A stretch of 40,012 nt of DNA from Corallococcus sp. CA041A (GTDB lineage Bacteria > Myxococcota > Myxococcia > Myxococcales > Myxococcaceae), in the NCBI RefSeq assembly GCF_003612075.1, contig NZ_RAWF01000059.1:1-40012 (forward strand), given 5' to 3'. Below, one piece after another: positions 1 through 15,041 of the stretch. Positions within the stretch are counted from its first letter, which is position 1. Each line of letters opens with the position of its first letter. Made by a program: the position numbers and the translations under genes. Under the pieces are notes generated by a model. That model was given only the letters and a program-made list of their open reading frames with translations. It was not told the DNA's origin and searched no databases.

Positions 1-96
1 GTGTTCTACAACCGGAAGCGGCGCCACTCCGCCCTGGGCTACGTCAGCCCAGTGGAATACGAGCGGAGGGCCGCAACCAAGAGGCTGGCAGCGTAG
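1..96 (+). mobile_element. 3' end of an IS3-family transposase (OrfB integrase-core C-terminus), truncated by the window edge
   Basis: Frame 1 reads VFYNRKRRHSALGYVSPVEYERRAATKRLAA*. The RRHSALGY..SP..YE motif is the characteristic C-terminal tail of IS3-family DDE transposases. Only 32 codons are visible, so element ends and inverted repeats cannot be assessed. Confidence 0.6.
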
Positions 97-311
97 TCAA
101 CCTGTCCACCGAACCGGAGCAGGCCCACACCGCCGCACGACCCGCGTGATGGGGACGCGCACGGATAGCGCGCTCGAAGTCCGACATGTCCAGCGCTTCG
201 ACAGCCGCCCATACAGCGCGCACTGGATGCTCTCGGTCAACCAACTGCTCGTAGGTCCGAGCCGCCAGCACCTGCGTCCGTTTCGGCCGGAGCACACGCA
301 CTCGCGGCCGT

Positions 312-1025
312 TTGCTCCCCGCCATGGCGATTCATGCTCGCACAGCAGCGCTTATGCATCCTTTGGATGCATCAGAATCGTTAATTTTTTCTCATCCCCT
401 CAGGGTCGCGGGCGTCTTCTCGGCCGCGGCGGTGCTCCTCATCGGGGCGGCTCATGCTCGGGGGCTGAAGCGCGATGACATCACGCCTGTCTATGTTGGC
501 GCGCACACGCTCGGGGTGGGGGGCGCCTGGCTCCTGGCGTATGCGGCGGCTCGCCTCGAGCGCGCGCGAGCGACGGCGCTCATCGGTGGCCTCTCCGCGC
601 TGTCACTGGCTGGTTTCGGGGCGTACGAGCTCACTGCGCCTCAACCACCGTACAAGGAGATCTCGGAGATCCTTCGCCCCTATCTGGAACCACTGCCGCC
701 CGGGCATGAGAGCTTCATCTCGCCCCGGTACAAGGTTCTTCAGCTCTACCTGTTTCGCAATGGTCGCTACTGGCAGTCCTTCTACACGGAACTCCGGCCG
801 GAGACGCTCGTGGCGAGCATCGCGTCCGGCGAGTACTGCGCCTTCGTCTTCGGCCCGGAGGAGCGTGAAGACCCCCGGCTCGTGCAAATGGAGCGGGACA
901 TCGCGCTGCAGGCCTTGGACTTGAGCGCGGAGTTGCCGGAGGGCGCACGCGGGGGATTCCGCGTCTTCGTGAACCGAGCATGCATGCAGGAGGGCGCGAA
1001 GGGTTCACGCCACGCGGAGGGATGA
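312..1025 (+). CDS. hypothetical membrane protein; start codon uncertain
   Basis: 237-aa ORF with an N-terminal hydrophobic segment (VAGVFSAAAVLLIGAA) and a second Ala/Gly-rich TM-like stretch. The first 30 codons are AT-rich with atypical GC3 for this genome, so the true start is probably downstream (for example the GTG near 433). No recognisable domain. Confidence 0.3.
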   Translation: MLPAMAIHARTAALMHPLDASESLIFSHPLRVAGVFSAAAVLLIGAAHARGLKRDDITPVYVGAHTLGVGGAWLLAYAAARLERARATALIGGLSALSLAGFGAYELTAPQPPYKEISEILRPYLEPLPPGHESFISPRYKVLQLYLFRNGRYWQSFYTELRPETLVASIASGEYCAFVFGPEEREDPRLVQMERDIALQALDLSAELPEGARGGFRVFVNRACMQEGAKGSRHAEG

Positions 1026-1306
1026 CGCCAGCATTCAACGCCGGCTGTCTTCAACGCGCCTTTCCCACCCACACCACATGACCAGCGATCGCTATAGCTG
1101 CTCCATGACTGCTCCTGTTGAGTCATGACATGACGTCGAAGCACCACGGCCCGTTCTGGAAAGTCCAGAGCGGGCCGCGGTAGGTCAAGGGCTGGAAGGT
1201 GGCGGCGTGGTCGGCGCTCTGTCCAGCGTCGTCAACGTTCCGGCCGGACCTTCAGTCCGCGCGGGCCTCCGCGCTGCTCAGGCCCCGGTGCCTCACCCTG
1301 CTACAG

Positions 1307-1400
1307 GTGTTCGCCTTGCTCCGGAATTGGTGTTCGGCTTGTCCCGGAGCCGGTGTTCGGCTTGCTCCGGAATCGGTGATCGGGATCGTCCGGAGCACGC
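1307..1400. repeat. four tandem 23-bp direct repeats (alternating A/B variants) in a 578-bp intergenic region
   Basis: The units are ggtgttcgccttgctccggaatt, ggtgttcggcttgtcccggagcc, ggtgttcggcttgctccggaatc and ggtgatcgggatcgtccggagcacg. Each contains a TCCGGA core. They lie about 200 bp upstream of the lipoprotein gene start at 1604. Confidence 0.6.
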
Positions 1401-1603
1401 ATCCACCCTGAAGGGATGACGTTGAACCCAGAGGTGTCGCGGGCGCGTGACAGGTGGGCAGCGCCAGGGCGCTTCCTGGGGCAGGGAGAATTTCATGCGA
1501 GGGTGGCCCGGATGCGCGTTAGCCTGGAGTTCGCTTTACCAGCCACATCCCGCGCAACCATCGTTGAGATCCCTGCGCCTGCTCGGCGCGGAGAGGGAGA
1601 ACC

Positions 1604-2668
1604 ATGCAGCGCTTTGTCCTCTTGGGTCTTGCACTGCTCACGGCCTGTGCAACGCCTGTCCATCAGGCCGCATCGCCGGTCCAGCCCAGCCCGGTCTACG
1701 TGTTCGAAGGCGTGGAGGTGTTCGGCTCACGCAAGGTGCCCAAGGGCAAGCTGCTGGAGGTCATTGGGATGCCTGCGCCCGGCGCGCGCTTCAACCTCGA
1801 GAAGGGGGAGTTCACGCCGTACCTCATGGAGAGCAAGCCGCGGCTCCTGGCGGCCTACAAGTTCGCGTTCTGCAGGTACTCGATGGTGGCCTACCCGCCG
1901 ACGCGGACGTTCCGGGTGACGGTGGATCTGGTCGATGCCGGAGATGAGTGGCGTATGCCCTTTTCACCCGCGCCGCAGGGCGATATCCCGGAGCCGGAGG
2001 GCCTCCTCACGGCCTGGGATGAATACCAGACGGCCTACTGGAAGCTGAGCAGGGAAGGGGCTGTCCCCGAGTACGGCAAGAGCAAGTGCCATGCCCTCAA
2101 CTGCCATGGAGGATTCGACCACCCCGAGCTCGCGCCGCTGGAGCAGCGCTTCATGGATGGTGTTCCCCGCAATCTCGACACGCTGGTGCGGGTGCTGCGT
2201 GAGGATCGCAACGACTCCAAGCGAATGGCCACGGTCATGCTCCTGCCCTACATCAACTCACGCGAGCAACTGGTGAAGCTCGTTCTCCCGTCGGTGCGCG
2301 ACCCCTACGAGGGTGTGCGCAACGAGGCGCTGCGCCTGCTGGGAACGATGCAGGAGGGACAGCCGCGGGTCATCATCCCGCTGGAGCCCGTGCTCGAAGC
2401 GCTCTGGTACCCGCTCGAGACCGACCGCAACAAGGCAGCCTGGGCGCTCGTGCACATCGTGGAAACCGAAGGCGCCGCCCATCAGCGGCAGATTCTCGAC
2501 AAGGCGGGCGCGGTGCTGGTGGAGATGGCTGGAATGCAGCAGAAGACCGATGCCGAGCCTGCTCGCAAGGTGCTCGCCATCCTGGCGGGGCGGGACCTGG
2601 GTGACGAGCCGGCGGCCTGGCACCGTTGGGTCGAGCAGACGCTCGGCTCGAACAGTGCCCATCGGTGA
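1604..2668 (+). CDS. lipoprotein with HEAT/armadillo-like repeats in the C-terminal half
   Basis: GGAGAGGGAGAACC precedes the ATG. The N-terminus MQRFVLLGLALLTAC carries an LLTAC lipobox. The C-terminal region has repeated RNEALRLLG / DRNKAAWALVHI-type HEAT-like motifs. GC3 codon bias is typical of the host. Confidence 0.6.
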   Translation: MQRFVLLGLALLTACATPVHQAASPVQPSPVYVFEGVEVFGSRKVPKGKLLEVIGMPAPGARFNLEKGEFTPYLMESKPRLLAAYKFAFCRYSMVAYPPTRTFRVTVDLVDAGDEWRMPFSPAPQGDIPEPEGLLTAWDEYQTAYWKLSREGAVPEYGKSKCHALNCHGGFDHPELAPLEQRFMDGVPRNLDTLVRVLREDRNDSKRMATVMLLPYINSREQLVKLVLPSVRDPYEGVRNEALRLLGTMQEGQPRVIIPLEPVLEALWYPLETDRNKAAWALVHIVETEGAAHQRQILDKAGAVLVEMAGMQQKTDAEPARKVLAILAGRDLGDEPAAWHRWVEQTLGSNSAHR

Positions 2669-2719
2669 CGAAGATGCTGCGAAGGCGGCAGTACGGGGGG
2701 CGTAACCCCTGGAACGCAT

Positions 2720-2785
2720 TGGCGGTAGGGCACGGGAATCGAACTCGCCAGGGACTGCTCTCGTAGCCCCTCACCGGTTTTGAAG
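2720..2785. repeat. 66-nt direct repeat (65/66 identical) of the 3' portion of the tRNA-Sec gene; putative attR-type island boundary
   Basis: tggcggtagggcacgggaatcgaactcgccagggactgctctcgtagcccctcaccggttttgaag is identical to 6071-6136 apart from one T/C difference (2764 vs 6115). The repeat begins exactly at the tRNA CCA 3' end and runs to the anticodon loop. Similarity ends abruptly on both sides. Confidence 0.7.
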
Positions 2786-2933
2786 CCCCGCCACACCGAT
2801 CCGCGAGGTGCCCGGGAGGATTGAGGGGTGGCCCGTTTCCCTCTGGCGCGGGGTGGACCGCGAGTCCGTAAAGGTCCACCCGCGTCCGTTCATCTTGGGT
2901 ACAGCTTGGGTACGCGGGTGGGGACGGCAGGGG

Positions 2934-3542
2934 TTAGGGGGCATTGGCTGCACCGGGGCCGGTCACGTCCGTGAACTTCGTGCCGGTGATGACCGCGCGC
3001 TCCAGGGCCTCCTTGATCTCCTCGGACACGATCAAGGCCACGGTCCAGCCCCAGGTGCGGAACACCTTGGCGCCTTCCACCTTCGCCGGGTCGATGCGCA
3101 TCCCGGACACGGAGGAGTACGTACCCACCTTTTCGGGCATCCCGTCCTCCGGGGTCCAGTAACGCACCTCCTCGCACGCTGCATCGTCGATGCACTTCAC
3201 CAGCCGGGTGGCGTTGAGGATGAAGTGCTGAGCGGGCTGGGAGTCGATCTCCACCGGGATGAGCTTCATGTCGTCGGGTGCCAGCTCGGTGAAGAAGGAG
3301 GCCGCCCGGGCGTGGACGACGGGGATGCTGAATGCCGCGTGGGAATAGTCGAGCGGTTTGCCGGAGATCTTGATGGGGATCCTGATGCGCTCGTCCGAGT
3401 GAGCCCGCTGCCCGATCCTGAACTGCCACGGGTCATAGAGCTTGCGCCCTTCCTGATCGAGAGGATGCCCCAGCTCCCACCGGCCGGAGAGGTACACATC
3501 ATCGGTCAACTTGAAGAACCGCGTCGGCATGAGGTCGTCCAT
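2934..3542 (-). CDS. putative (orphan) polymorphic-toxin immunity protein, Imm11/DUF1629-like by recollection
   Basis: 202-aa ORF starting MDDLMPTRFFKLTDDVYLSGRWELGHPLDQEGRKLYDPWQF. It sits 10 nt downstream of the first immunity gene within the toxin locus, on the same strand, and has no signal peptide. The family assignment is from memory only. Confidence 0.45.
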   Translation of the reverse strand: MDDLMPTRFFKLTDDVYLSGRWELGHPLDQEGRKLYDPWQFRIGQRAHSDERIRIPIKISGKPLDYSHAAFSIPVVHARAASFFTELAPDDMKLIPVEIDSQPAQHFILNATRLVKCIDDAACEEVRYWTPEDGMPEKVGTYSSVSGMRIDPAKVEGAKVFRTWGWTVALIVSEEIKEALERAVITGTKFTDVTGPGAANAP

Positions 3543-3552
3543 CCGAGGCGGG

Positions 3553-3903
3553 CTACTCTGGATCGAGCGCCCAGGTTCCTTCTTCCCAGCGCTTCAATGC
3601 CTGCCCGGCTTCAAAGGGAACGAGCCCCTTGCCCTTGGCGGCTTCCTCCAGAACCGCCTTCGCTTCGGCCGTCCGGTAGCGGAGCAGATGGGCGGCGGCC
3701 ATGACACGCACATCCATGCGCTCATGCTTGAGCAGGACGAGGAGGGCATCACGTCCTGCGTTTCCATGGGCCAGGAGCTTATCGACGGCTGCACCGTACT
3801 TCCTGGCGTGCTTGTTTCCCGTCTTGGCATCTCCCCGGAAGATGGCCTCGGTCTGTGCCGCCACGTTCAGGGCGAACTGCTCGACCAATCTCTCCAACGT
3901 CAT
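3553..3903 (-). CDS. DUF2019-like immunity protein (HEAT-like helical repeat) cognate to the upstream toxin
   Basis: Its ATG overlaps the toxin TGA by one nucleotide (GTGATG on the minus strand), as is typical of translationally coupled toxin-immunity pairs. It is 116 aa and helical. LLAHGNAGRDALLVLLKHERMDVRVMAAAHLL resembles DUF2019 immunity proteins. Confidence 0.55.
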   Translation of the reverse strand: MTLERLVEQFALNVAAQTEAIFRGDAKTGNKHARKYGAAVDKLLAHGNAGRDALLVLLKHERMDVRVMAAAHLLRYRTAEAKAVLEEAAKGKGLVPFEAGQALKRWEEGTWALDPE

Positions 3904-5255
3904 CACCAGACCCCCTTCGCCACGTTCTCCATGGCCAGCAGCCCGAAGTCACGCTGGGCCTCGTAGGACTGCGTGCTCAACCATTGCCTCACGGTCAATG
4001 GCGAGCCGGTGATACTACGCCGGATCGACGAGTAGAGCGCGCTGACGTCGGTGTGCAGGATCTTGTCCAGTGGGATGAGGTTCTCGGTGTTGTGGAGGGC
4101 CTGGGGGCCGAAGCGCTTCACGTTGCCCGGAGTTTGCTCGACGATGTGGTGCCACTCCTTGTTCTTGCCCGCCGGGCCCATGGCCTTCTTGAAACCACTG
4201 AACGAGCTCCAGGCCCTGTAGCCCAAGGGACGCGCCTTGGCGGAGGCGCTGCCGCCCGTGGCTTTGGCCCCCATGGCCACCGCGCCGGGCGCGAGGGCGA
4301 TGGTGACGGTCTCGGCGCTCACGGCCACCGTTCCCACGTCCGCGACCGCCGCGAGCCTGATGCCCATTTGCGCTTCAGCCTGGACCGCCGCCTGCGCGGC
4401 GCCTGGGAGCATTGGCACCTTCGACCCCAGCCCCGCCGCCGTGTTCCCAAGGGCGGCCGTTGCCAACATGGCGAACGCGCGCGCCGCGTTGCGGCCCATG
4501 ACCTTGCCGTAGCGCTCACCCGCCTCGCGGAGTTCGTCAAACGTGGTGGCCCGCTCCGCCTCCTCCACCAGCTGCTTGAAGCCCAAGATGAGGCTCCAGA
4601 ACGTATCGACCCCCACGTAGGCAATGAGGGAGGCGGTCATCACGGCGGCCACGCCCTTCGAGAAAGGCTCGGGCACCGCGAGCAAGATGCAGTACGTGGT
4701 CCACGTCCAAAGAACCGCAGCCATCATGGCCTGGGGATCAGCCATCTCCTTGAAGGCGTCCATCATCTCGTCCCGCACGACGCCTTGGGCCAAGGCCATG
4801 GCCAGGGCGTAACGGCCATCTCCGGTGACAGTAGGGCTCTCCACCAGGAGGCGCAGGCAATCGCCGGGTTTGCTCGTTCGCTCGCACCAGCGCAGGTATG
4901 CGCGCGTCAGATCCACCTCTGTCGAGGGGAGATCACCGTCCAGGTGTTCGCCCGGTCCCAGCGGGATGACACGGTGGCTGCGCGGCTCGTACAGGTACGA
5001 ACCGCTGCGCGGATCCATCTCGAAAAACCGCCGGGCCGTTTCCTGGGGATGAGTGGACGGCCGCACGTTCCGGGCGAGCACTGCTACGACTTCAACGAAG
5101 TCGTCTTCGTCCAACTCCACCGGCGCGGCATCGCCGCTGCGTGGGGTGAGGACGATGGGGTCGCCGTGGCCCGTGTGTAGGCGCACGGACTTCGTGGTGC
5201 CGCTGCATCCGGCCAGCATCACGATCAGTAGGGGAATCGACCATCGTGGCAGCAT
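3903..5255 (-). CDS. SitA-like polymorphic lipoprotein toxin with a C-terminal WHH-type HNH nuclease domain
   Basis: Start moved to the ATG at 5255, which is preceded by AGGAGG 8 nt upstream. The N-terminus MLPRWSIPLLIVMLAGCSGT is a lipoprotein signal with an LAGC lipobox. A long variable or hydrophobic central region follows. The C-terminus KEWHHIVEQ...ALHNTENLIPL...ILH matches the WHH subfamily of HNH/EndoVII nucleases (catalytic HH, structural N, metal-binding H). The immunity gene overlaps its stop. Confidence 0.6.
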   Translation of the reverse strand: MLPRWSIPLLIVMLAGCSGTTKSVRLHTGHGDPIVLTPRSGDAAPVELDEDDFVEVVAVLARNVRPSTHPQETARRFFEMDPRSGSYLYEPRSHRVIPLGPGEHLDGDLPSTEVDLTRAYLRWCERTSKPGDCLRLLVESPTVTGDGRYALAMALAQGVVRDEMMDAFKEMADPQAMMAAVLWTWTTYCILLAVPEPFSKGVAAVMTASLIAYVGVDTFWSLILGFKQLVEEAERATTFDELREAGERYGKVMGRNAARAFAMLATAALGNTAAGLGSKVPMLPGAAQAAVQAEAQMGIRLAAVADVGTVAVSAETVTIALAPGAVAMGAKATGGSASAKARPLGYRAWSSFSGFKKAMGPAGKNKEWHHIVEQTPGNVKRFGPQALHNTENLIPLDKILHTDVSALYSSIRRSITGSPLTVRQWLSTQSYEAQRDFGLLAMENVAKGVW

Positions 5256-5614
5256 GCGGAGCCCTCCTGGCGCTGGCGCTCTTTGCTCGGGAGCGCATCG
5301 GTGGCGCAAGGTCGGGTAATACCAGGTAGAACTGACAAGCGCTCCGGGTGGTCACCGGCTGTCGTCGAGCGTGCGGGCCGACGGCGTGCCGGAAGTGTTC
5401 AGGTGCAGTGCGCCCAATGACTAGATTGCTTCCATGGGAGCATCCGGTCTGTCCAAACGCGCCTGCCAGCAGAGGTCCCACGATAGCCCACAGGACCAGC
5501 CGCCGTGCTGTTTTCCCGAGAGCCAAGCGACTCTCCATTGCCATGGGTTCACAGTGACTGGGGGCGATGCTGATCGTCAGGCCCAAGTCAGTCGTTCAAA
5601 TCTAGTTCGGCATA

Positions 5615-6004
5615 CTAGGGGAGCCGGACTGTCCCGATGTGAACTCCAAGTGAGAGGAACGCGTCTCGTCGTACGAGCCCATACTTTCCAGCGGATGAGC
5701 CGCGACCGGCCGACTCGCGGGTATGTTTGGAATAAATGCTGGACGGTAGTGACCAAATGTCAAAGCTGCCGTCGCTCTGTTGGAAAGCACCGAATACGCG
5801 GGACACGCGTGCAAGCATCTTGAAGGTGACACCGACGGTGTCGGTGTCAGGTTTGGCGCACTTGATCACAATCAATTCGTCGTCGAGTAGCGCCTCATTC
5901 GAGATGTTGCTGAGTGGCTTGGCTCCTAGCTTTTCGGCGAGCTGTCGAGCTGTATCACGGCCCCATTGAGCGGCAGTTGCGCCACTTTCCTTATCCTGTG
6001 GCAT
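5615..6004 (-). CDS. hypothetical protein in a low-GC (about 57 %) segment of the island
   Basis: 129-aa ORF. Local GC is clearly below the flanking 70 %, suggesting foreign origin. No recognisable motifs, and coding status is uncertain. Confidence 0.3.
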   Translation of the reverse strand: MPQDKESGATAAQWGRDTARQLAEKLGAKPLSNISNEALLDDELIVIKCAKPDTDTVGVTFKMLARVSRVFGAFQQSDGSFDIWSLPSSIYSKHTRESAGRGSSAGKYGLVRRDAFLSLGVHIGTVRLP

Positions 6005-6070
6005 TTGTGCGTCGACCTCTTGGTAGCTGCTGGCTGGTGACGATGAATCGCTAACCGGATTGCAGAGGTG

Positions 6071-6169
6071 TGGCGGTAGGGCACGGGAATCGAACTCGCC
6101 AGGGACTGCTCTCGCAGCCCCTCACCGGTTTTGAAGACCGGGCCGGCCACCAGGTCCGGAGGCCCTACC
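6071..6169 (-). tRNA. selC: tRNA-Sec (selenocysteine tRNA, anticodon UCA), about 99 nt with a long variable arm
   Basis: Minus-strand sequence GGTAGGGC...CCGGT-CTTCAAA-ACCGG...GAGTTCGATTCCCGTGCCCTACC-G-CCA. It has an 8-bp acceptor stem and a 7-nt anticodon loop with U33, anticodon TCA and A37. It also has a roughly 25-nt variable arm, a GTTCGATTC T-loop, a G73 discriminator and an encoded CCA. One A-C mismatch sits in the T-stem. Confidence 0.7.
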
Positions 6170-6211: not shown

Positions 6212-7180
6212 TCACGGCTTGCGCGCGAACACCACGGCGTACTCGTCGCAGTTGAACAGCGCGGGCCACTGGAGCTGCTCCGGTGTCATCCGCATCGCCT
6301 TGTGCACGTCCGCGCGCACCTGGTGCAGCGACGTGCTCCCCGGATTGCGCTCCAGCTGCGTCATGCCCCGCAGCGCCACCAGCGCCGTGTTCACCGCCGG
6401 GTACACATCCTCCGCGATGGACTCCACCTTCGCGTCCTGGAACCCCGCCCGCCGCAGCTCCGACAGGTAGCGCTCCGTCGACCAGACGTTCTCCTCCGGG
6501 AAGGCAATCAGCCCCCGCCAGTAGCGGTAGCGCAGCCGCGCTCGGAGTCCGGCTCCAGCCTCACGGTCCGTCTTCTGCGCCATGTCCGCCATCACCAGCC
6601 GGCCTCCCGGCTTCAGCACCCGGAAGGCCTCGCGCAGGAAGTCCTGCCGCATCCGGAAGTGCATCGCGGACTCCAGCGCGAACACCACGTCGAATGCTCC
6701 CTCCGGCCCAGGCAGCGCCGTCGCGCTCCCCACCTCCAGCCGGACCACGCCCTCCAACCCCGTCAGCTTCACGCGCTCCCGGCCCACCTTCACCTGGTTC
6801 GGCGTGATGTTCACCCCGACGATGCTCGCGGGCTTGAACTCCTCCGCCCACAGCAGGTCCTGGTCCGCGTAACCGAAGCCGCAGTCCAAGACGGCATCCC
6901 CGGGCCCCAGCTTCGCCGTCCTCGCCAACAGGCGCGCCATCTCCGCCTGGGCGGACCGGAACAGCTCCCCCACGCGCTCCACGTTGGAGTCGTCCACCTT
7001 CTCCACGTGCTTCCAGTAGCCCAGGTTGATCCAGAAGGGCTCCCGGCCCGTTGTCACCCGGATGTCGCTCGGCGCCGGCATCCCCGCCACCCAGGCTCCT
7101 GTCTCGTTCGTATAGAAGCGCTCCGGGTCCGCCAGGAACGCACTCTTCAGCCGCGTCGCGACCTGCCTCACGTTGACCAT
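6212..7180 (-). CDS. class I SAM-dependent methyltransferase
   Basis: CAGGAGG RBS 7 nt before the ATG. Motif I VLDCGFGYADQ and motif post-I/II (VVFALESAMHF, LKPGGRLVM) are typical of the Rossmann-fold methyltransferase family. Confidence 0.75.
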   Translation of the reverse strand: MVNVRQVATRLKSAFLADPERFYTNETGAWVAGMPAPSDIRVTTGREPFWINLGYWKHVEKVDDSNVERVGELFRSAQAEMARLLARTAKLGPGDAVLDCGFGYADQDLLWAEEFKPASIVGVNITPNQVKVGRERVKLTGLEGVVRLEVGSATALPGPEGAFDVVFALESAMHFRMRQDFLREAFRVLKPGGRLVMADMAQKTDREAGAGLRARLRYRYWRGLIAFPEENVWSTERYLSELRRAGFQDAKVESIAEDVYPAVNTALVALRGMTQLERNPGSTSLHQVRADVHKAMRMTPEQLQWPALFNCDEYAVVFARKP

Positions 7181-9761: not shown

Positions 9762-10064
9762 CTACTGGCAGATGCCCGGGCAGTCCGCGCTGCCCCCGGG
9801 CTGGCACGTGTCGGACGGATCATCCACGCAGGTGTTCCCGGACACGTTCCCCGCGCAGCCCCCGAAGAGGCCGCCGCAGCACTCGACGTACCCCTCCGGC
9901 ACGTCACACGGCGTCGGGAAGGACTGGCACGTCTCGCTGTCCGAGCGCGCGAACACCACCACCTGCGGACACGTGCGCGGCTCTTCGTCGTCGTCGCCCA
10001 GACAGCCCGTCAGACCCAGCACCGCCATCAGCCCCAGCTTCGTCCATGCATGCATGGCGCGCAT
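9762..10064 (-). CDS. small Cys-rich lipoprotein
   Basis: MRAMHAWTKLGLMAVLGLTGC carries an LTGC lipobox. The roughly 80-aa mature part has 10 Cys and acidic DDDEE near the lipid anchor. No clear RBS. It overlaps the 3' end of the convergent gene 10085-11158 only if the longer ORF start is used. Confidence 0.4.
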   Translation of the reverse strand: MRAMHAWTKLGLMAVLGLTGCLGDDDEEPRTCPQVVVFARSDSETCQSFPTPCDVPEGYVECCGGLFGGCAGNVSGNTCVDDPSDTCQPGGSADCPGICQ

Positions 10065-10084
10065 CAGGGCAGGGGAGAACGGCG

Positions 10085-11158
10085 CTAGTCCAGCCCCCGC
10101 TCCCACAGGTCGTCTTCATCCAGACCCATCAAGTGACCGACTTCGTGCATCACCGTGATGCCAATCTGTTCGATGAGTTCCTCGCGGGTCCGCGCGAAGC
10201 GCTCCAGGTTCTTCTGGTACAGCACGATGGAGGGCGGGAAGTGATCCGCCGCGTCCATCACGCTGCGCTCGCCCACGGGCGTGCCCCGGAACACCCCCAG
10301 GATGCACGGTGACAGTGGCGGCTGCTGACCCAGCAGGTCCTCATCCGACGGCAGGTCCTCCACCGCCAGCGTCACGTTGTCCATGTACTGCTTCACCTGC
10401 GAGGGCAGGGCGCGCATCGCGTCCTCCACCGCGCGGTCGAACGCCGCCTCCTCCAGCGCCACCGGCGGCGGCAGCTCCTCCGGGGCCAGCGCCTGCGCCC
10501 GGGAGAAGCGCTTCTTCGCCTCCTTCGCATCCTGGCGCCGCTCCGCGACCAGCCCCAGGTAGTGGTGCGCCCAGGCCTCGTCCGGCGCGTCCTTCAACAC
10601 CCGCTCGAAGGCCTCCTGCGCGGGCGCGAAGCGGCACAACTCGAACAGCGCGATGCCCCGCTCCAGCTGCGCGTCCGTCGAGCGCGGCATGTGCGTCAGC
10701 GCCTGGTCCAGGATTTTCAGCGCGGACTCACATTCCCCCAACTGGTTGAGGCCCATGCCCTCCAGGAGGAGGAACTCGTAGACGAGCTCCACGTCATCGG
10801 CCCGCTGCGCCAGCTTCCGCCCGCGGCCGCACCACTCCAGCCCTTCCTCCACCGCCTCGCGGTCCTCGCCGGTGCGGCACACGAGGAATTCCGCCGCGCC
10901 GAAGAGGATCTCCAGGTCTTCCGGGGCCATCTTGAGGGCGGCGCCATAGGCCTTGCCCGCGTCCTCCAGGCGTCCCACCTCCACCAGCGCGGCGGCCCGG
11001 TAGTGCAGGGCTTCTGGTGAGTCCGGAACGTCCCGGAGCAGGGCGTCGGCGCTGGTGAGCGCGGCCTCGAAGTCCCGCGCCTCGAAGGCGTCCGCGACTC
11101 CCTCCAGCCGCGCGTCCATGTCCCGCGCCTCCCCTTGCTTCGCCATGCGCTTCGCCAT
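10085..11158 (-). CDS. TPR-repeat protein fused to a C-terminal minimal zinc metallopeptidase domain (COG3824-like)
   Basis: The N-terminal two-thirds holds several TPR-like helix pairs (ALHYRAAALVEVGRLEDAGKAY..., AHHYLGLVAERRQDAKEA...). The C-terminus VMHEVGHLMGLDEDDL is the HExxH core of the MMP-like predicted Zn-dependent protease family. Confidence 0.7.
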   Translation of the reverse strand: MAKRMAKQGEARDMDARLEGVADAFEARDFEAALTSADALLRDVPDSPEALHYRAAALVEVGRLEDAGKAYGAALKMAPEDLEILFGAAEFLVCRTGEDREAVEEGLEWCGRGRKLAQRADDVELVYEFLLLEGMGLNQLGECESALKILDQALTHMPRSTDAQLERGIALFELCRFAPAQEAFERVLKDAPDEAWAHHYLGLVAERRQDAKEAKKRFSRAQALAPEELPPPVALEEAAFDRAVEDAMRALPSQVKQYMDNVTLAVEDLPSDEDLLGQQPPLSPCILGVFRGTPVGERSVMDAADHFPPSIVLYQKNLERFARTREELIEQIGITVMHEVGHLMGLDEDDLWERGLD

Positions 11159-13511: not shown

Positions 13512-15041
13512 TCAGGAAGCGGTCTTCTTGAAGGCCAGGCCCAACTCGCGGCTGAGCGCCGTGGTGTCGGAGAGCAGCTTGGGCAGGCACGCGGCGGCCC
13601 CGGCGCGCAGCGATGCCAGGGCCGTGTCCATGGTGAGGTGCTCGGCCAGGACGACGAAGGGCGCGCCCTGGCTCAGGGCCCGGGCCAGCTCCAGCGCCTT
13701 CTTGCCGTAGGCCGGCGCGAAGTCCCAAGACACCACCACGCCCATGGGCGGCTCCATGGTGGCCACCTCCGCGCCCGCGACGACGCGCGCCTCCAGGCCC
13801 AACAGCGTCAGCGCCTCTGAAATCAGCCGCGCGGTGGCCGGGTTGTCCTCCAGCACGTCCACCCGGCGCACGCCAGCGCTGGGGGCGGGGACAGGCGGCG
13901 CGGCCGGTGTGTACAGCGCCTGCCGCAACAGTGCGCGCACCTGGCGGATGTCGTCGAAGGGCTTGAGCAGGTAGTCCACCAGGCCCAGCTGCAGCGCCTG
14001 CTGCGTCGTCACCAGCGAGGGGTAGCCCGTCATCAGGATGACGCGCGACGCGGGATCCAGCTTCCGCGCGTGCTGGGCCAACTCCAGGCCGGAGATTCCG
14101 GGCAGGTTCTTGTCCGTGACGATGAGATCCACGCGCGACGAGCGGAGGATTTCGAGCGCGGCTTCGCCCGTGGCCGCTTCAATGACTTCGCACTCCTTGT
14201 CCATCAGGTCCTTGAAGACCATCCGGATGATGCCCTCGTCGTCCACCACCAGCAGGCGCTTGCGCGGCGGGCGCGGCGCGTCCGTGGGCGGGAAGAGCAC
14301 GCGGAACACGGTGGCCGGGGGCGGCACTTCGCGCAGCGTCGTGGGCGGCACCAGGGCAATCTGCGCGTGGTGCTCCTGCGCGATGCGACGACAGACGGCG
14401 AGCCCCAGGCCCGTGCCGCGTTTGCTGGCGGAGACGTAGGGCTCGAAGATGCGCGTCTTCAGCTCGTCCGGGATGCCCGGTCCCCAGTCGGACACGTAGA
14501 GGGCCGCGGAGGCGCCATCGCGCGTGAGCGTCACCTTCACGCGGCCCCGGCCGGACATGGCGTCGCGGGCGTTGTTGAGCAGGTTGAGCGTGAGCTGTTC
14601 AATCAGCCGCGCGTTGCCCTGGATGGTCAGGTCCTCGGGGGCCTCCACCTCCAGTGAGATGCGCGCCGAGTCCGGGTTGACGCTGAACACCTTCGCCGCC
14701 GCCCAGATGGGCGCGGCCAGGGACAGCCGCTGCTGCGGGGCCGGCCGCTCGCTGGCCAGGCGGATGAAGTCGGAGACGATCTGCTCCATCCGCTCCACCT
14801 GCGCGAGCAGCAGCTTCAGCGGACCGCTGGAGCCTCCTTCCTCGGCGAGCAGCTGGGCGTAGGCCTTCGCGCCCAGGAGGGGCTGACGCAGCTCATGGAG
14901 GACCTCCGCGGCGACCTGATGGGTGTGGGCGTTGGCGCGTTGCAGCGCCACGGCCGCGACCCGTGCCTTCTCCAGGTCCCCCGCGTCCAGGGCCTGGAGC
15001 AGCTGCGCGAGCGGCGAGGGGGTCTCCATGCGCGGGAGCAT
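13512..15041 (-). CDS. cytoplasmic hybrid sensor histidine kinase (HisKA-HATPase_c-receiver, plus a second receiver-like C-terminal domain)
   Basis: H-box HELRQPL near the N-terminus with no TM or sensor domain. N/G boxes LLNNARDAM...DWGPGIP...GTGLGLAV. Receiver LLVVDDEGIIRMVF...DLIVTDKNLPGISGLEL...ILMTGY. A further CheY-like fold lies at the C-terminus. Confidence 0.85.
   Translation of the reverse strand: MLPRMETPSPLAQLLQALDAGDLEKARVAAVALQRANAHTHQVAAEVLHELRQPLLGAKAYAQLLAEEGGSSGPLKLLLAQVERMEQIVSDFIRLASERPAPQQRLSLAAPIWAAAKVFSVNPDSARISLEVEAPEDLTIQGNARLIEQLTLNLLNNARDAMSGRGRVKVTLTRDGASAALYVSDWGPGIPDELKTRIFEPYVSASKRGTGLGLAVCRRIAQEHHAQIALVPPTTLREVPPPATVFRVLFPPTDAPRPPRKRLLVVDDEGIIRMVFKDLMDKECEVIEAATGEAALEILRSSRVDLIVTDKNLPGISGLELAQHARKLDPASRVILMTGYPSLVTTQQALQLGLVDYLLKPFDDIRQVRALLRQALYTPAAPPVPAPSAGVRRVDVLEDNPATARLISEALTLLGLEARVVAGAEVATMEPPMGVVVSWDFAPAYGKKALELARALSQGAPFVVLAEHLTMDTALASLRAGAAACLPKLLSDTTALSRELGLAFKKTAS

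Follow-up and report, generated by a model that had tools for sequence, protein, structure and literature searches.

A tRNA-Sec fragment bounds a toxin-bearing island

We analysed a 40,012-nucleotide (nt) stretch of the genome of Corallococcus sp. CA041A (contig NZ_RAWF01000059.1, positions 1 to 40,012), referred to here as the window. It holds a tRNA-Sec gene (selC) and, beyond the 3' end of that gene, a small island of 3.3 kb that encodes a SitA5-type outer-membrane lipoprotein toxin together with immunity-type genes and that ends in a partial copy of the tRNA. The island appears to be what is left of an integrative element that had inserted into selC. Loci from other genomes are labelled L001–L043, and coordinates are those of the window unless such a locus is named; the features of the locus are collected in Table 1.

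The sole tRNA gene that ARAGORN found in the window was a tRNA-SeC with anticodon TCA, at 6071–6169 on the minus strand. The same interval scored 70.5 bits against Rfam RF01852 (gathering score 47), confirming the intact tRNA-Sec gene of the initial annotation. Its 3' part recurs as a direct repeat of 66 nt at 2720–2785 and 6071–6136, as determined with a repeat finder. The copies are identical at 65/66 positions, the mismatch being T at 2764 versus C at 6115, and allowing a second mismatch extends the repeat to 69 nt (2720–2788 and 6071–6139). Mapped onto the tRNA, the repeat spans the stretch between the encoded CCA and nucleotide 34, with which the 7-nt anticodon loop (CUUCAAA) begins; both its position and its extent had been described correctly. 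Exactly two occurrences of a 30-mer from the repeat were counted in the window, and 0 of 100 shuffles gave the repeat. Because the distal copy reached just 32.8 bits with RF01852, it is a tRNA fragment and not a second tRNA. The interval 6071–6169 serves as attL core plus tRNA.

Past the distal core lie a short sequence that is probably the native selC trailer and a HEAT-repeat lipoprotein gene, which is likewise the neighbour in L001–L003 and L042/L043. On the other side, a methyltransferase gene adjoins tRNA-Sec, as it does in L009–L014, L025 and L026. When one genome per species was scanned with this methyltransferase as the query, tRNA-Sec was found beside it only within Corallococcus, and the DNA 3' of selC varied in nearly every Corallococcus species sampled.

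Table 1. Features of the selC locus in the window
Feature	Position	Strand	Evidence or remark
HEAT-repeat lipoprotein gene, chromosomal flank past the distal core	1604..2668	+	Pfam HEAT_2
Trailer after the distal core (AATGCGTTCCAGGGGTTACGCCCCCCGTACTGCC...), probably native	2675..2719	-	~90% similar to post-tRNA sequence in L006–L009
Distal 66-nt att core, presumed displaced original 3' part of the tRNA	2720..2785	-	1 mismatch, at 2764
Element P arm beside the distal core	2786..2933	-	85% identical in L004, 74% in L010, 77% in L040
Tandem exact 9-mers CTTGGGTAC (GTACCCAAG in tRNA sense), putative arm-type integrase-binding sites	2894..2913	-	
Imm11-family immunity gene, orphan	2934..3542	-	PF07791, E 3.1e-12, 46.7 bits (cutoff 22.1)
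DUF2019 gene, presumed SitI5 immunity	3553..3903	-	PF09450, E 4.2e-6, 27.1 bits (cutoff 23.3)
sitA5, 450-aa outer-membrane lipoprotein toxin: SitA5 escort domain and C-terminal WHH-motif, HNH_2-like domain	3903..5255	-	
Conserved upstream region of the sitA5 cassette	5256..5390	-	Alignments with L004, L042/L043 and L013 all stop at 5390
Strain-variable low-GC slot beside the tRNA	5391..6070	-	GC 0.56–0.58
129-aa gene (ORF129), widespread uncharacterised family	5615..6004	-	In the stretch of GC 0.56–0.58
Proximal 66-nt att core, anticodon loop to CCA	6071..6136	-	Repeat finder; L002 insertion exactly at 6136/6137
tRNA-Sec gene (selC), intact	6071..6169	-	ARAGORN; RF01852
SAM-dependent methyltransferase gene, conserved chromosomal neighbour of selC within Corallococcus	6212..7180	-	Pfam

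Integrase-bearing elements share the tRNA segment

The initial annotation had read the two repeats as attL and attR. Consistent with this reading, integrase-bearing elements in L002, L028, L040, L014, L025 and L039 involve the same 66-nt segment with an identical inner boundary (..GGTTTTGAAG). The loci of relatives were reached by exact look-ups of neighbouring proteins, the methyltransferase of the window having no exact match.

L002 (GCA_003668965.1) differs from window 397–6136 at 1 base in 5740 (99.98% identity). At the point corresponding to window 6136/6137 it departs from the tRNA and runs for ~90 nt into a gene of 378 amino acids (aa), which is followed by genes for an N6/N4 DNA methylase and then a family-A DNA polymerase. 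The 378-aa protein matched the integrase family PHROG_1 (E 4e-11) and has the C-terminal RH...H...Y pattern of tyrosine recombinases. L002 thus has a second 66-nt fragment in place of the tRNA. The intact tRNA of GCA_003668965.1 lies on contig L008, where the next genes encode DUF2381 and Ser/Thr-kinase proteins; in L006 and L009 these genes run on into others for an endolysin and a tail protein. We infer that L002 and L008 hold parts of a single prophage-like element. What separates the window from L002 is therefore that a large element has been integrated or excised precisely at the repeat's inner boundary. The tRNA-Sec gene is still a live attB, where other elements land and push the island into a tandem array.

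The prophage-like element (L002 11399–17930 and L008 15092–16804; also in L006 and L009) measures at least ~38 kb. One of its ends carries the genes of the divergent tyrosine integrase, the methylase and the polymerase, and the other DUF2381, two Ser/Thr kinases, Xre-type regulators, the endolysin and the tail protein.

A related integrase, 83% identical to that of L002, was found in L028, a provirus (IMG/VR uncultivated viral genome (UViG) 2833744468). It adjoins a 66-nt fragment that derives from the tRNA-Sec variant of its own host (91% identical to that of the window), and the inner boundary is the same (...GGTTTTGAAG|GCGAGTTCTAGCC). Just past the tRNA-Sec fragment, L028 1819–9270 encodes a Tiamat TmtA-like protein (PADLOC E 8e-151) and a NERD/UvrD helicase of DRT-associated type (E 2e-64), so that defence genes gather at the selC site too.

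A second integrase type of 381 aa, 44% identical to the L002 type (PHROG_1, E 3e-19), begins ~110 nt past the intact tRNA-Sec in L014 (C. llansteffanensis) and L025 (C. interemptor) and is followed by DUF3854/DUF5906 primase-like genes. A complete selC element of 3.9 kb was present in L040 (Corallococcus sp. BB11-1). There the tRNA-Sec (9790–9888) is followed, in order, by a P' arm with a tandem motif, a frameshifted integrase of the 381-aa type, an HNH effector (PADLOC PDLC00739, E 1e-30), a P arm (13633–13754) that is 77% identical to window 2786–2912 with the motif position included, and a 67-nt tRNA fragment. The selC integrases form a Myxococcota-specific clade with 131 matches at E<=1e-10, most of which have no precomputed PF00589 match.

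Two further occurrences of the 381-aa type were noted. In L039 (Corallococcus sp. CA047B; 9821–11152), the integrase and P' arm lie beside a 69-nt tRNA-Sec fragment whose variable arm has undergone paired changes (CGCT...GGCG instead of CTGC...GCAG). Within 10 kb there is no intact tRNA, and the chromosomal context differs. L039 may represent a tandem array or else a secondary site. Protein P0066 (UniProt Q5ZPC0), labelled Archangium disciforme and thereby attributed to another genus, is 93% identical to the Corallococcus 381-aa selC integrase.

No such gene is left in the window. Pfam and NCBIfam scans matched no integrase family among the island open reading frames (ORFs), and tblastn with both selC integrase types found no homologue across the window, in agreement with the initial annotation, which had listed no integrase between the repeats. 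Nor did tblastn reveal integrase relics in either the window or the islands that have no integrase, and family scans gave no excisionase, replication or transfer gene in the window island.

Each integrase subtype has its own arm repeats

The P arm of the window contains two exact copies of GTACCCAAG, which start at 2894 and 2905 and are thus 11 bp apart. The same motif marks the 381-aa integrase lineage, where it is found in the P' arms of L014, L025, L039 and L040 and in the P arms of L040 and the window; in L014/L025 the arm between tRNA and integrase contains CGTACCCAAG-TTT-TACCCAAG. Elements of the L002/L008 type have TGCGTTAC in both arms, namely in the P arm of L002 (11462 and 11473) and in the P' arm of L008 (15176 and 15187), and those of the L007/L009/L028 type have GTCGTTAGCG in the P' arms of L007 and L009 and in the P arm of L028. 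All three motif types have the 11-bp spacing and the same orientation relative to the tRNA. The three integrase subtypes therefore share one common 66-nt core and differ in their arm repeats.

That each subtype has its own 11-bp-spaced tandem on both arms supports reading the motifs as arm-type sites, which the cognate integrases would bind. As evidence, only tandem copies of GTACCCAAG at att arms count. Both 66-nt cores are retained in the window allele, as is the P arm with its tandem repeats; P' arm repeats are absent from this allele.

Viral contigs were also scanned. A 30-mer of the 66-nt core gave 0 matches there, and no relative of the 381-aa integrase was found. The tandem arm motif produced 8 matches, which we dismissed as chance, all being in low-GC contigs with neither a tRNA-Sec fragment nor an integrase relative.

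Related alleles record decay and replacement

The sister alleles L042/L043 (C. exiguus) are 98.0% identical to window 397–5390. After their tRNA comes the first ~50 nt of an L040-type P' arm (48/50 positions), and this stub is followed, at the place expected for the integrase, by a GmrSD-type gene (GmrSD_N) and an IS66 relic. The distal end of the island is therefore the P arm of the 381-aa lineage, of which the sister allele still has the other arm, with the integrase presumably deleted.

In L004, from the same species, the sitA5–sitI genes are 91.9% identical to those of the window and the arm plus core 85%, compared with 98.2% on the methyltransferase side. The tRNA-Sec fragment is 95% identical, the arm is shortened and has lost the motif, Imm11 is missing, and the slot beside the tRNA is filled by a 171-aa ORF and an IS3-like transposase. 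Three unlike tRNA-proximal segments thus meet the sitA5 block at window 5390: that of the window with ORF129, the L004 type and the L042/L043 type.

In L007 a truncated sitA5 adjoins an IS21 piece, in L012 nothing remains but a DUF2019 relic, and L010 (C. carmarthensis) contains an integrase-less island of 3.5 kb with other content, in which the bounding fragment is 82% and the arm 74% identical. Relatives thus show the decay of selC islands.

A different arrangement was seen in C. coralloides B035 (L041, CP034669; 10001–19500). Here the HEAT gene abuts sitI–sitA5 (87% identical) with no fragment between them; further on come a DUF2381/kinase block and then, at a distance of 8 kb, a tRNA-Sec fragment and the arm, followed by a DUF2019 relic. 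The 21 kb examined contain no tRNA-Sec. Such an order points to an inversion or translocation, one endpoint of which fell within the island, and on the same grounds we rejected L041 as a representative of the ancestral state.

Cargo and flanking genes

All genes between the repeats are on the minus strand, and their content is as first described: a lipoprotein toxin, two immunity-type genes and a low-GC small ORF. The toxin matched NCBIfam NF050093 (SitA5_escort) over residues 27–292 with E 6.3e-116 and 386.5 bits (cutoff 160), and the identical protein is named by NCBI as a SitA5 family polymorphic toxin of Corallococcus exiguus / unclassified Corallococcus. A lipobox, LAGC, could be read from the translation (MLPRWSIPLLIVMLAGC/SGTT). 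In the C-terminal ~110 residues an alignment of homologues revealed conserved W-H-H...N...N...H columns.

The nuclease part of the earlier label 'lipoprotein nuclease toxin' leans on a weak match to PF13391 (HNH_2; E 0.09–0.13). That model was matched by 5 of 24 toxin-domain homologues, with a best E of 8.4e-5, and an HNH (PF13391) module is known for SitA5-Mf1, in line with the window toxin (PMC8546572). PDB sequences, searched with a profile of the C-terminal domain, gave no meaningful relative. The domain (3903–4230; proteins P0150–P0269) belongs to a family for which there is no Pfam model and whose members are mostly free-standing 'hypothetical' proteins of 90–220 aa from Myxococcota, with one member from a Bacteroidia metagenome-assembled genome. 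Many of the ~93-aa members may be orphan toxin modules.

In the sequence TGATG, the start codon of the DUF2019 gene shares 1 nt with the toxin stop codon. The gene sits where SitI is expected, directly downstream in the same operon, and its protective role is presumed from this position. The Imm11-family gene has no cognate toxin beside it, and gene callers begin it at 3530 (198 aa).

Homologues of ORF129 number 274 representatives at E<=1e-3 and 142 at E<=1e-10; most are full-length proteins of 128–130 aa, and by this conservation we regard ORF129 as a real gene. Searches with it against Pfam, PHROGs and PADLOC gave no match. Some members of the family (P0270–P0419) are fused to NOV_C, HNH, FRG or DUF6998, and these fusions point to a possible role in conflict systems.

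At the start of the window, the initial annotation had placed an IS3 transposase tail at 1–96. The only family match there was to IS1182 (NF033551, E 2.3e-6), in an ORF at 44–325 on the minus strand. It covers profile positions 5–53 of 488, the N-terminal 50 residues only, and therefore represents an N-terminal end and no tail. By this match the fragment is more likely the end of an IS1182-family element than of an IS3 element. Window 1–396 is not colinear with L001–L003, in which a 602-aa PMT_2/GT39-type glycosyltransferase gene is intact. In the window this gene is cut, leaving an ORF at 312–1025, and the foreign DNA encodes the N-terminus of the IS1182-family transposase, in a frame that reads off the end of the window. 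It seems that an insertion sequence (IS) entered this strain only. The spacer that separates the truncated glycosyltransferase gene from the HEAT lipoprotein gene contains, at 1306–1396, 3–4 tandem copies of the 23-nt unit GGTGTTCGSCTTGCTCCGGAnnc.

Discussion

We consider 2720–6169 to be the integrase-less remnant of a site-specific integrative element inserted in the tRNA-Sec gene of Corallococcus exiguus, and put the probability of this at about 0.8. The attP of the element family would hold a 66-nt copy of the 3' part of tRNA-Sec, from anticodon loop to CCA, and a tyrosine integrase would recombine it with the chromosomal tRNA at the anticodon loop. The copy brought by the element would then complete the tRNA (6071–6169), and the displaced native 3' part would stay behind as the distal repeat (2720–2785) with its trailer. 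The P arm (2786–2933) with its tandem GTACCCAAG would be retained from the 381-aa integrase lineage (L014, L025, L039, L040), the integrase and P' arm having been lost later, presumably by deletion. The tRNA-proximal 0.7 kb is a replaceable slot, overwritten probably by further integrations and deletions. The survivors would be the sitA5–sitI5 pair, the orphan Imm11 and the P arm, plus the 129-aa conflict-system-like gene. Addiction probably holds the pair in place, since cells that lose sitI would die by the toxin of their siblings; addiction-like behaviour has been proposed for sitAI on mobile DNA, and retention of a toxin with its immunity gene fits that proposal (PMC5562445).

Four observations weigh against this interpretation. 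Among 8 strain loci and 19 species loci we recovered no empty site, that is, tRNA-Sec followed by the trailer and the HEAT gene. Because no empty-site genome was found, the insertion of the island itself has not been seen as a presence/absence polymorphism; the alignment of relatives proposed in the initial annotation did yield a polymorphism at the exact boundary, but only for the neighbouring prophage-like element (window versus L002). A lone exact GTACCCAAG is not rare, as one unrelated match in L028 illustrates. The distal core (98.5%) is better conserved than the adjoining arm, which a purely neutral fossil would not predict. Finally, the tRNA-proximal junction of the window (CACCTCTGCAATCC...) is unlike the L014-type P' arm, for which reason the island may be a chimera of two elements and not a simple deletion derivative.

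Such a chimera would have arisen by accretion of two selC elements and subsequent deletion of the inner core, one P' arm and the integrase, so that the element behind the tRNA-proximal 0.7 kb would have arrived after the one behind the part with sitA5, Imm11 and the P arm. We regard this history as a tentative possibility. It would account for the breakpoint at 5390 shared by three unrelated tRNA-proximal segments, for the GC content of the proximal segment (0.56–0.58), which is below that of the rest, and for the sequence after the CCA, which for ~20 nt resembles L004 and L012 and not an L014-type P' arm; accretion and deletion are, moreover, a published route to such islands (PMC5704250). 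However, no degenerate relic of an inner core could be read in the sequence at 5391–5460, and 5390 may just as well mark where a sitA5 cassette, moved by homologous recombination, naturally ends upstream. An origin from two elements refines the explanation as an integrase-less remnant rather than opposing it.

The initial annotation had left open whether the island is decayed, or minimal and mobilised in trans. As the P arm is kept, the P' arm and integrase are lost and the sister allele L042/L043 has a P' stub, we favour decay. A functional minimal element, in the sense of a satellite or a cis-mobilisable element (CIME), would have no integrase of its own and be moved in trans or co-excised with a neighbouring selC element. 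The nearly perfect 66-nt cores and the two exact arm-type repeats kept in the P arm are compatible with this, a tandem state of prophage, core, island and core exists in L002/L008, and co-transfer of CIMEs with integrative and conjugative elements (ICEs) is documented in other bacteria (PMC5704250). The greater divergence of the L004 island alleles compared with their flanks (91.9% and 85% versus 98.2%) could reflect exchange between lineages. Yet the window allele has no P' arm-type sites, excisionase, replication or transfer genes; the tandem partner in L002 has a different integrase subtype and a different arm motif; and neither a circular nor an attP form was seen in the viral contigs (0 matches). 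In every strain that has it the island is at the same place with the same flanks, as vertical descent predicts, and relatives show ongoing decay. We therefore judge a functional minimal element unlikely. It is equally doubtful, because the P' sites are missing from the window allele, that the island can still be mobilised in cis, whereby an incoming element with a 381-aa integrase would supply the P' arm and integrase, and its attL would recombine with the P arm and distal core of the island to excise a composite and take sitA5–sitI–Imm11 to a new strain. If it could, small selC elements would shuttle kin-recognition toxin/immunity 'barcodes' among Corallococcus lineages, and the variable slot would record successive visits.

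That the repeat is no att site at all, having arisen by chance or by segmental duplication of part of the tRNA in an ancestral gene order, seems to us extremely improbable. The missing empty site and the direct passage from HEAT gene to sitI–sitA5 in L041, with no fragment between, would suit it. Against this, at least five other genomes have integrase-bearing elements bounded by the same 66 nt with an unchanged inner boundary, the shuffled sequences never gave the repeat, post-selC DNA varies across nearly all the Corallococcus species sampled, and L041 is a rearranged mosaic and not ancestral.

The island is thus a decayed derivative of a selC-targeting integrative element and comparable to a CIME. 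CIMEs and tandem accretion were defined for ICESt1/ICESt3-related islands of Streptococcus, and the published route, in which integration is followed by decay into a CIME and a new element then accretes at the restored site, matches the history of the island (PMC5704250). As in a CIME, an island flanked by attL and attR is set in the 3' end of a target gene and has lost its integration genes. As in accretion, a second element with a related integrase occupies the regenerated site in a tandem array (L002/L008), with deletions and IS erosion. In contrast to the ICESt1/ICESt3 CIMEs, the host is a myxobacterium, the target is tRNA-Sec, and the partners are prophage-like or small primase-bearing elements and not conjugative ICEs. 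The window allele also differs from those CIMEs in keeping only one arm (P) with arm-type repeats, so that it may no longer be mobilisable.

The geometry of the site also follows a known pattern. Williams's 2002 classification of tRNA/tmRNA integration sites reportedly includes an anticodon-loop sublocation, and as in such integrations the identity block here covers the 7-nt anticodon loop and everything 3' of it, insertion restores the tRNA, and the 3' part that is displaced becomes a direct repeat. In enterobacteria selC is a hotspot for islands such as LEE and SHI-2, which have the same target. Unlike those islands, the Corallococcus elements use a Myxococcota-specific integrase clade, with at least three subtypes that have one core and different arm repeats, and the cargo is a kin-discrimination toxin and not virulence genes.

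SitA5/SitI5 are outer-membrane-exchange polymorphic toxin loci of Myxococcus (PMC5562445, PMC8546572), and transfer by outer membrane exchange is an experimental, TraAB-dependent property (PMC8546572). The Corallococcus locus resembles them in its escort domain, its putative modular C-terminal toxin domain, the presumed immunity gene directly downstream and the association with mobile DNA. Unlike the Myxococcus sitA5 loci it has no sitB and is not in a Mx-alpha unit, being part of a small integrase-less selC island with an orphan Imm11. Because sitAI loci have often been reported on mobile DNA (PMC8546572, PMC5562445), the novelty originally claimed for the insertion was overstated. What stands is that tRNA-Sec is not named as their site in the literature found, and we found no paper linking tRNA-Sec, integrases and myxobacteria.

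The components of this picture are all established: tRNA-targeted islands, CIMEs and accretion, the enterobacterial selC hotspot and sitAI on mobile elements. The locus does not overturn current understanding and is a tidy example of a well-known process; what it adds is the anatomy of the site, with a common core and lineage-specific arm repeats. Integrases of Mx8 and Mx9 serve as integration tools in Myxococcus, and the 66-nt core with its lineage-specific arm repeats could become a site-specific integration tool for Corallococcus. SitA toxins set the social boundaries of myxobacterial swarms, and the movement of their genes between strains bears on the origin of kin groups. The selC locus offers one concrete, sequence-resolved route for such movement: an attachment site common to at least three integrase lineages, at which toxin and defence genes are left behind as the elements decay.

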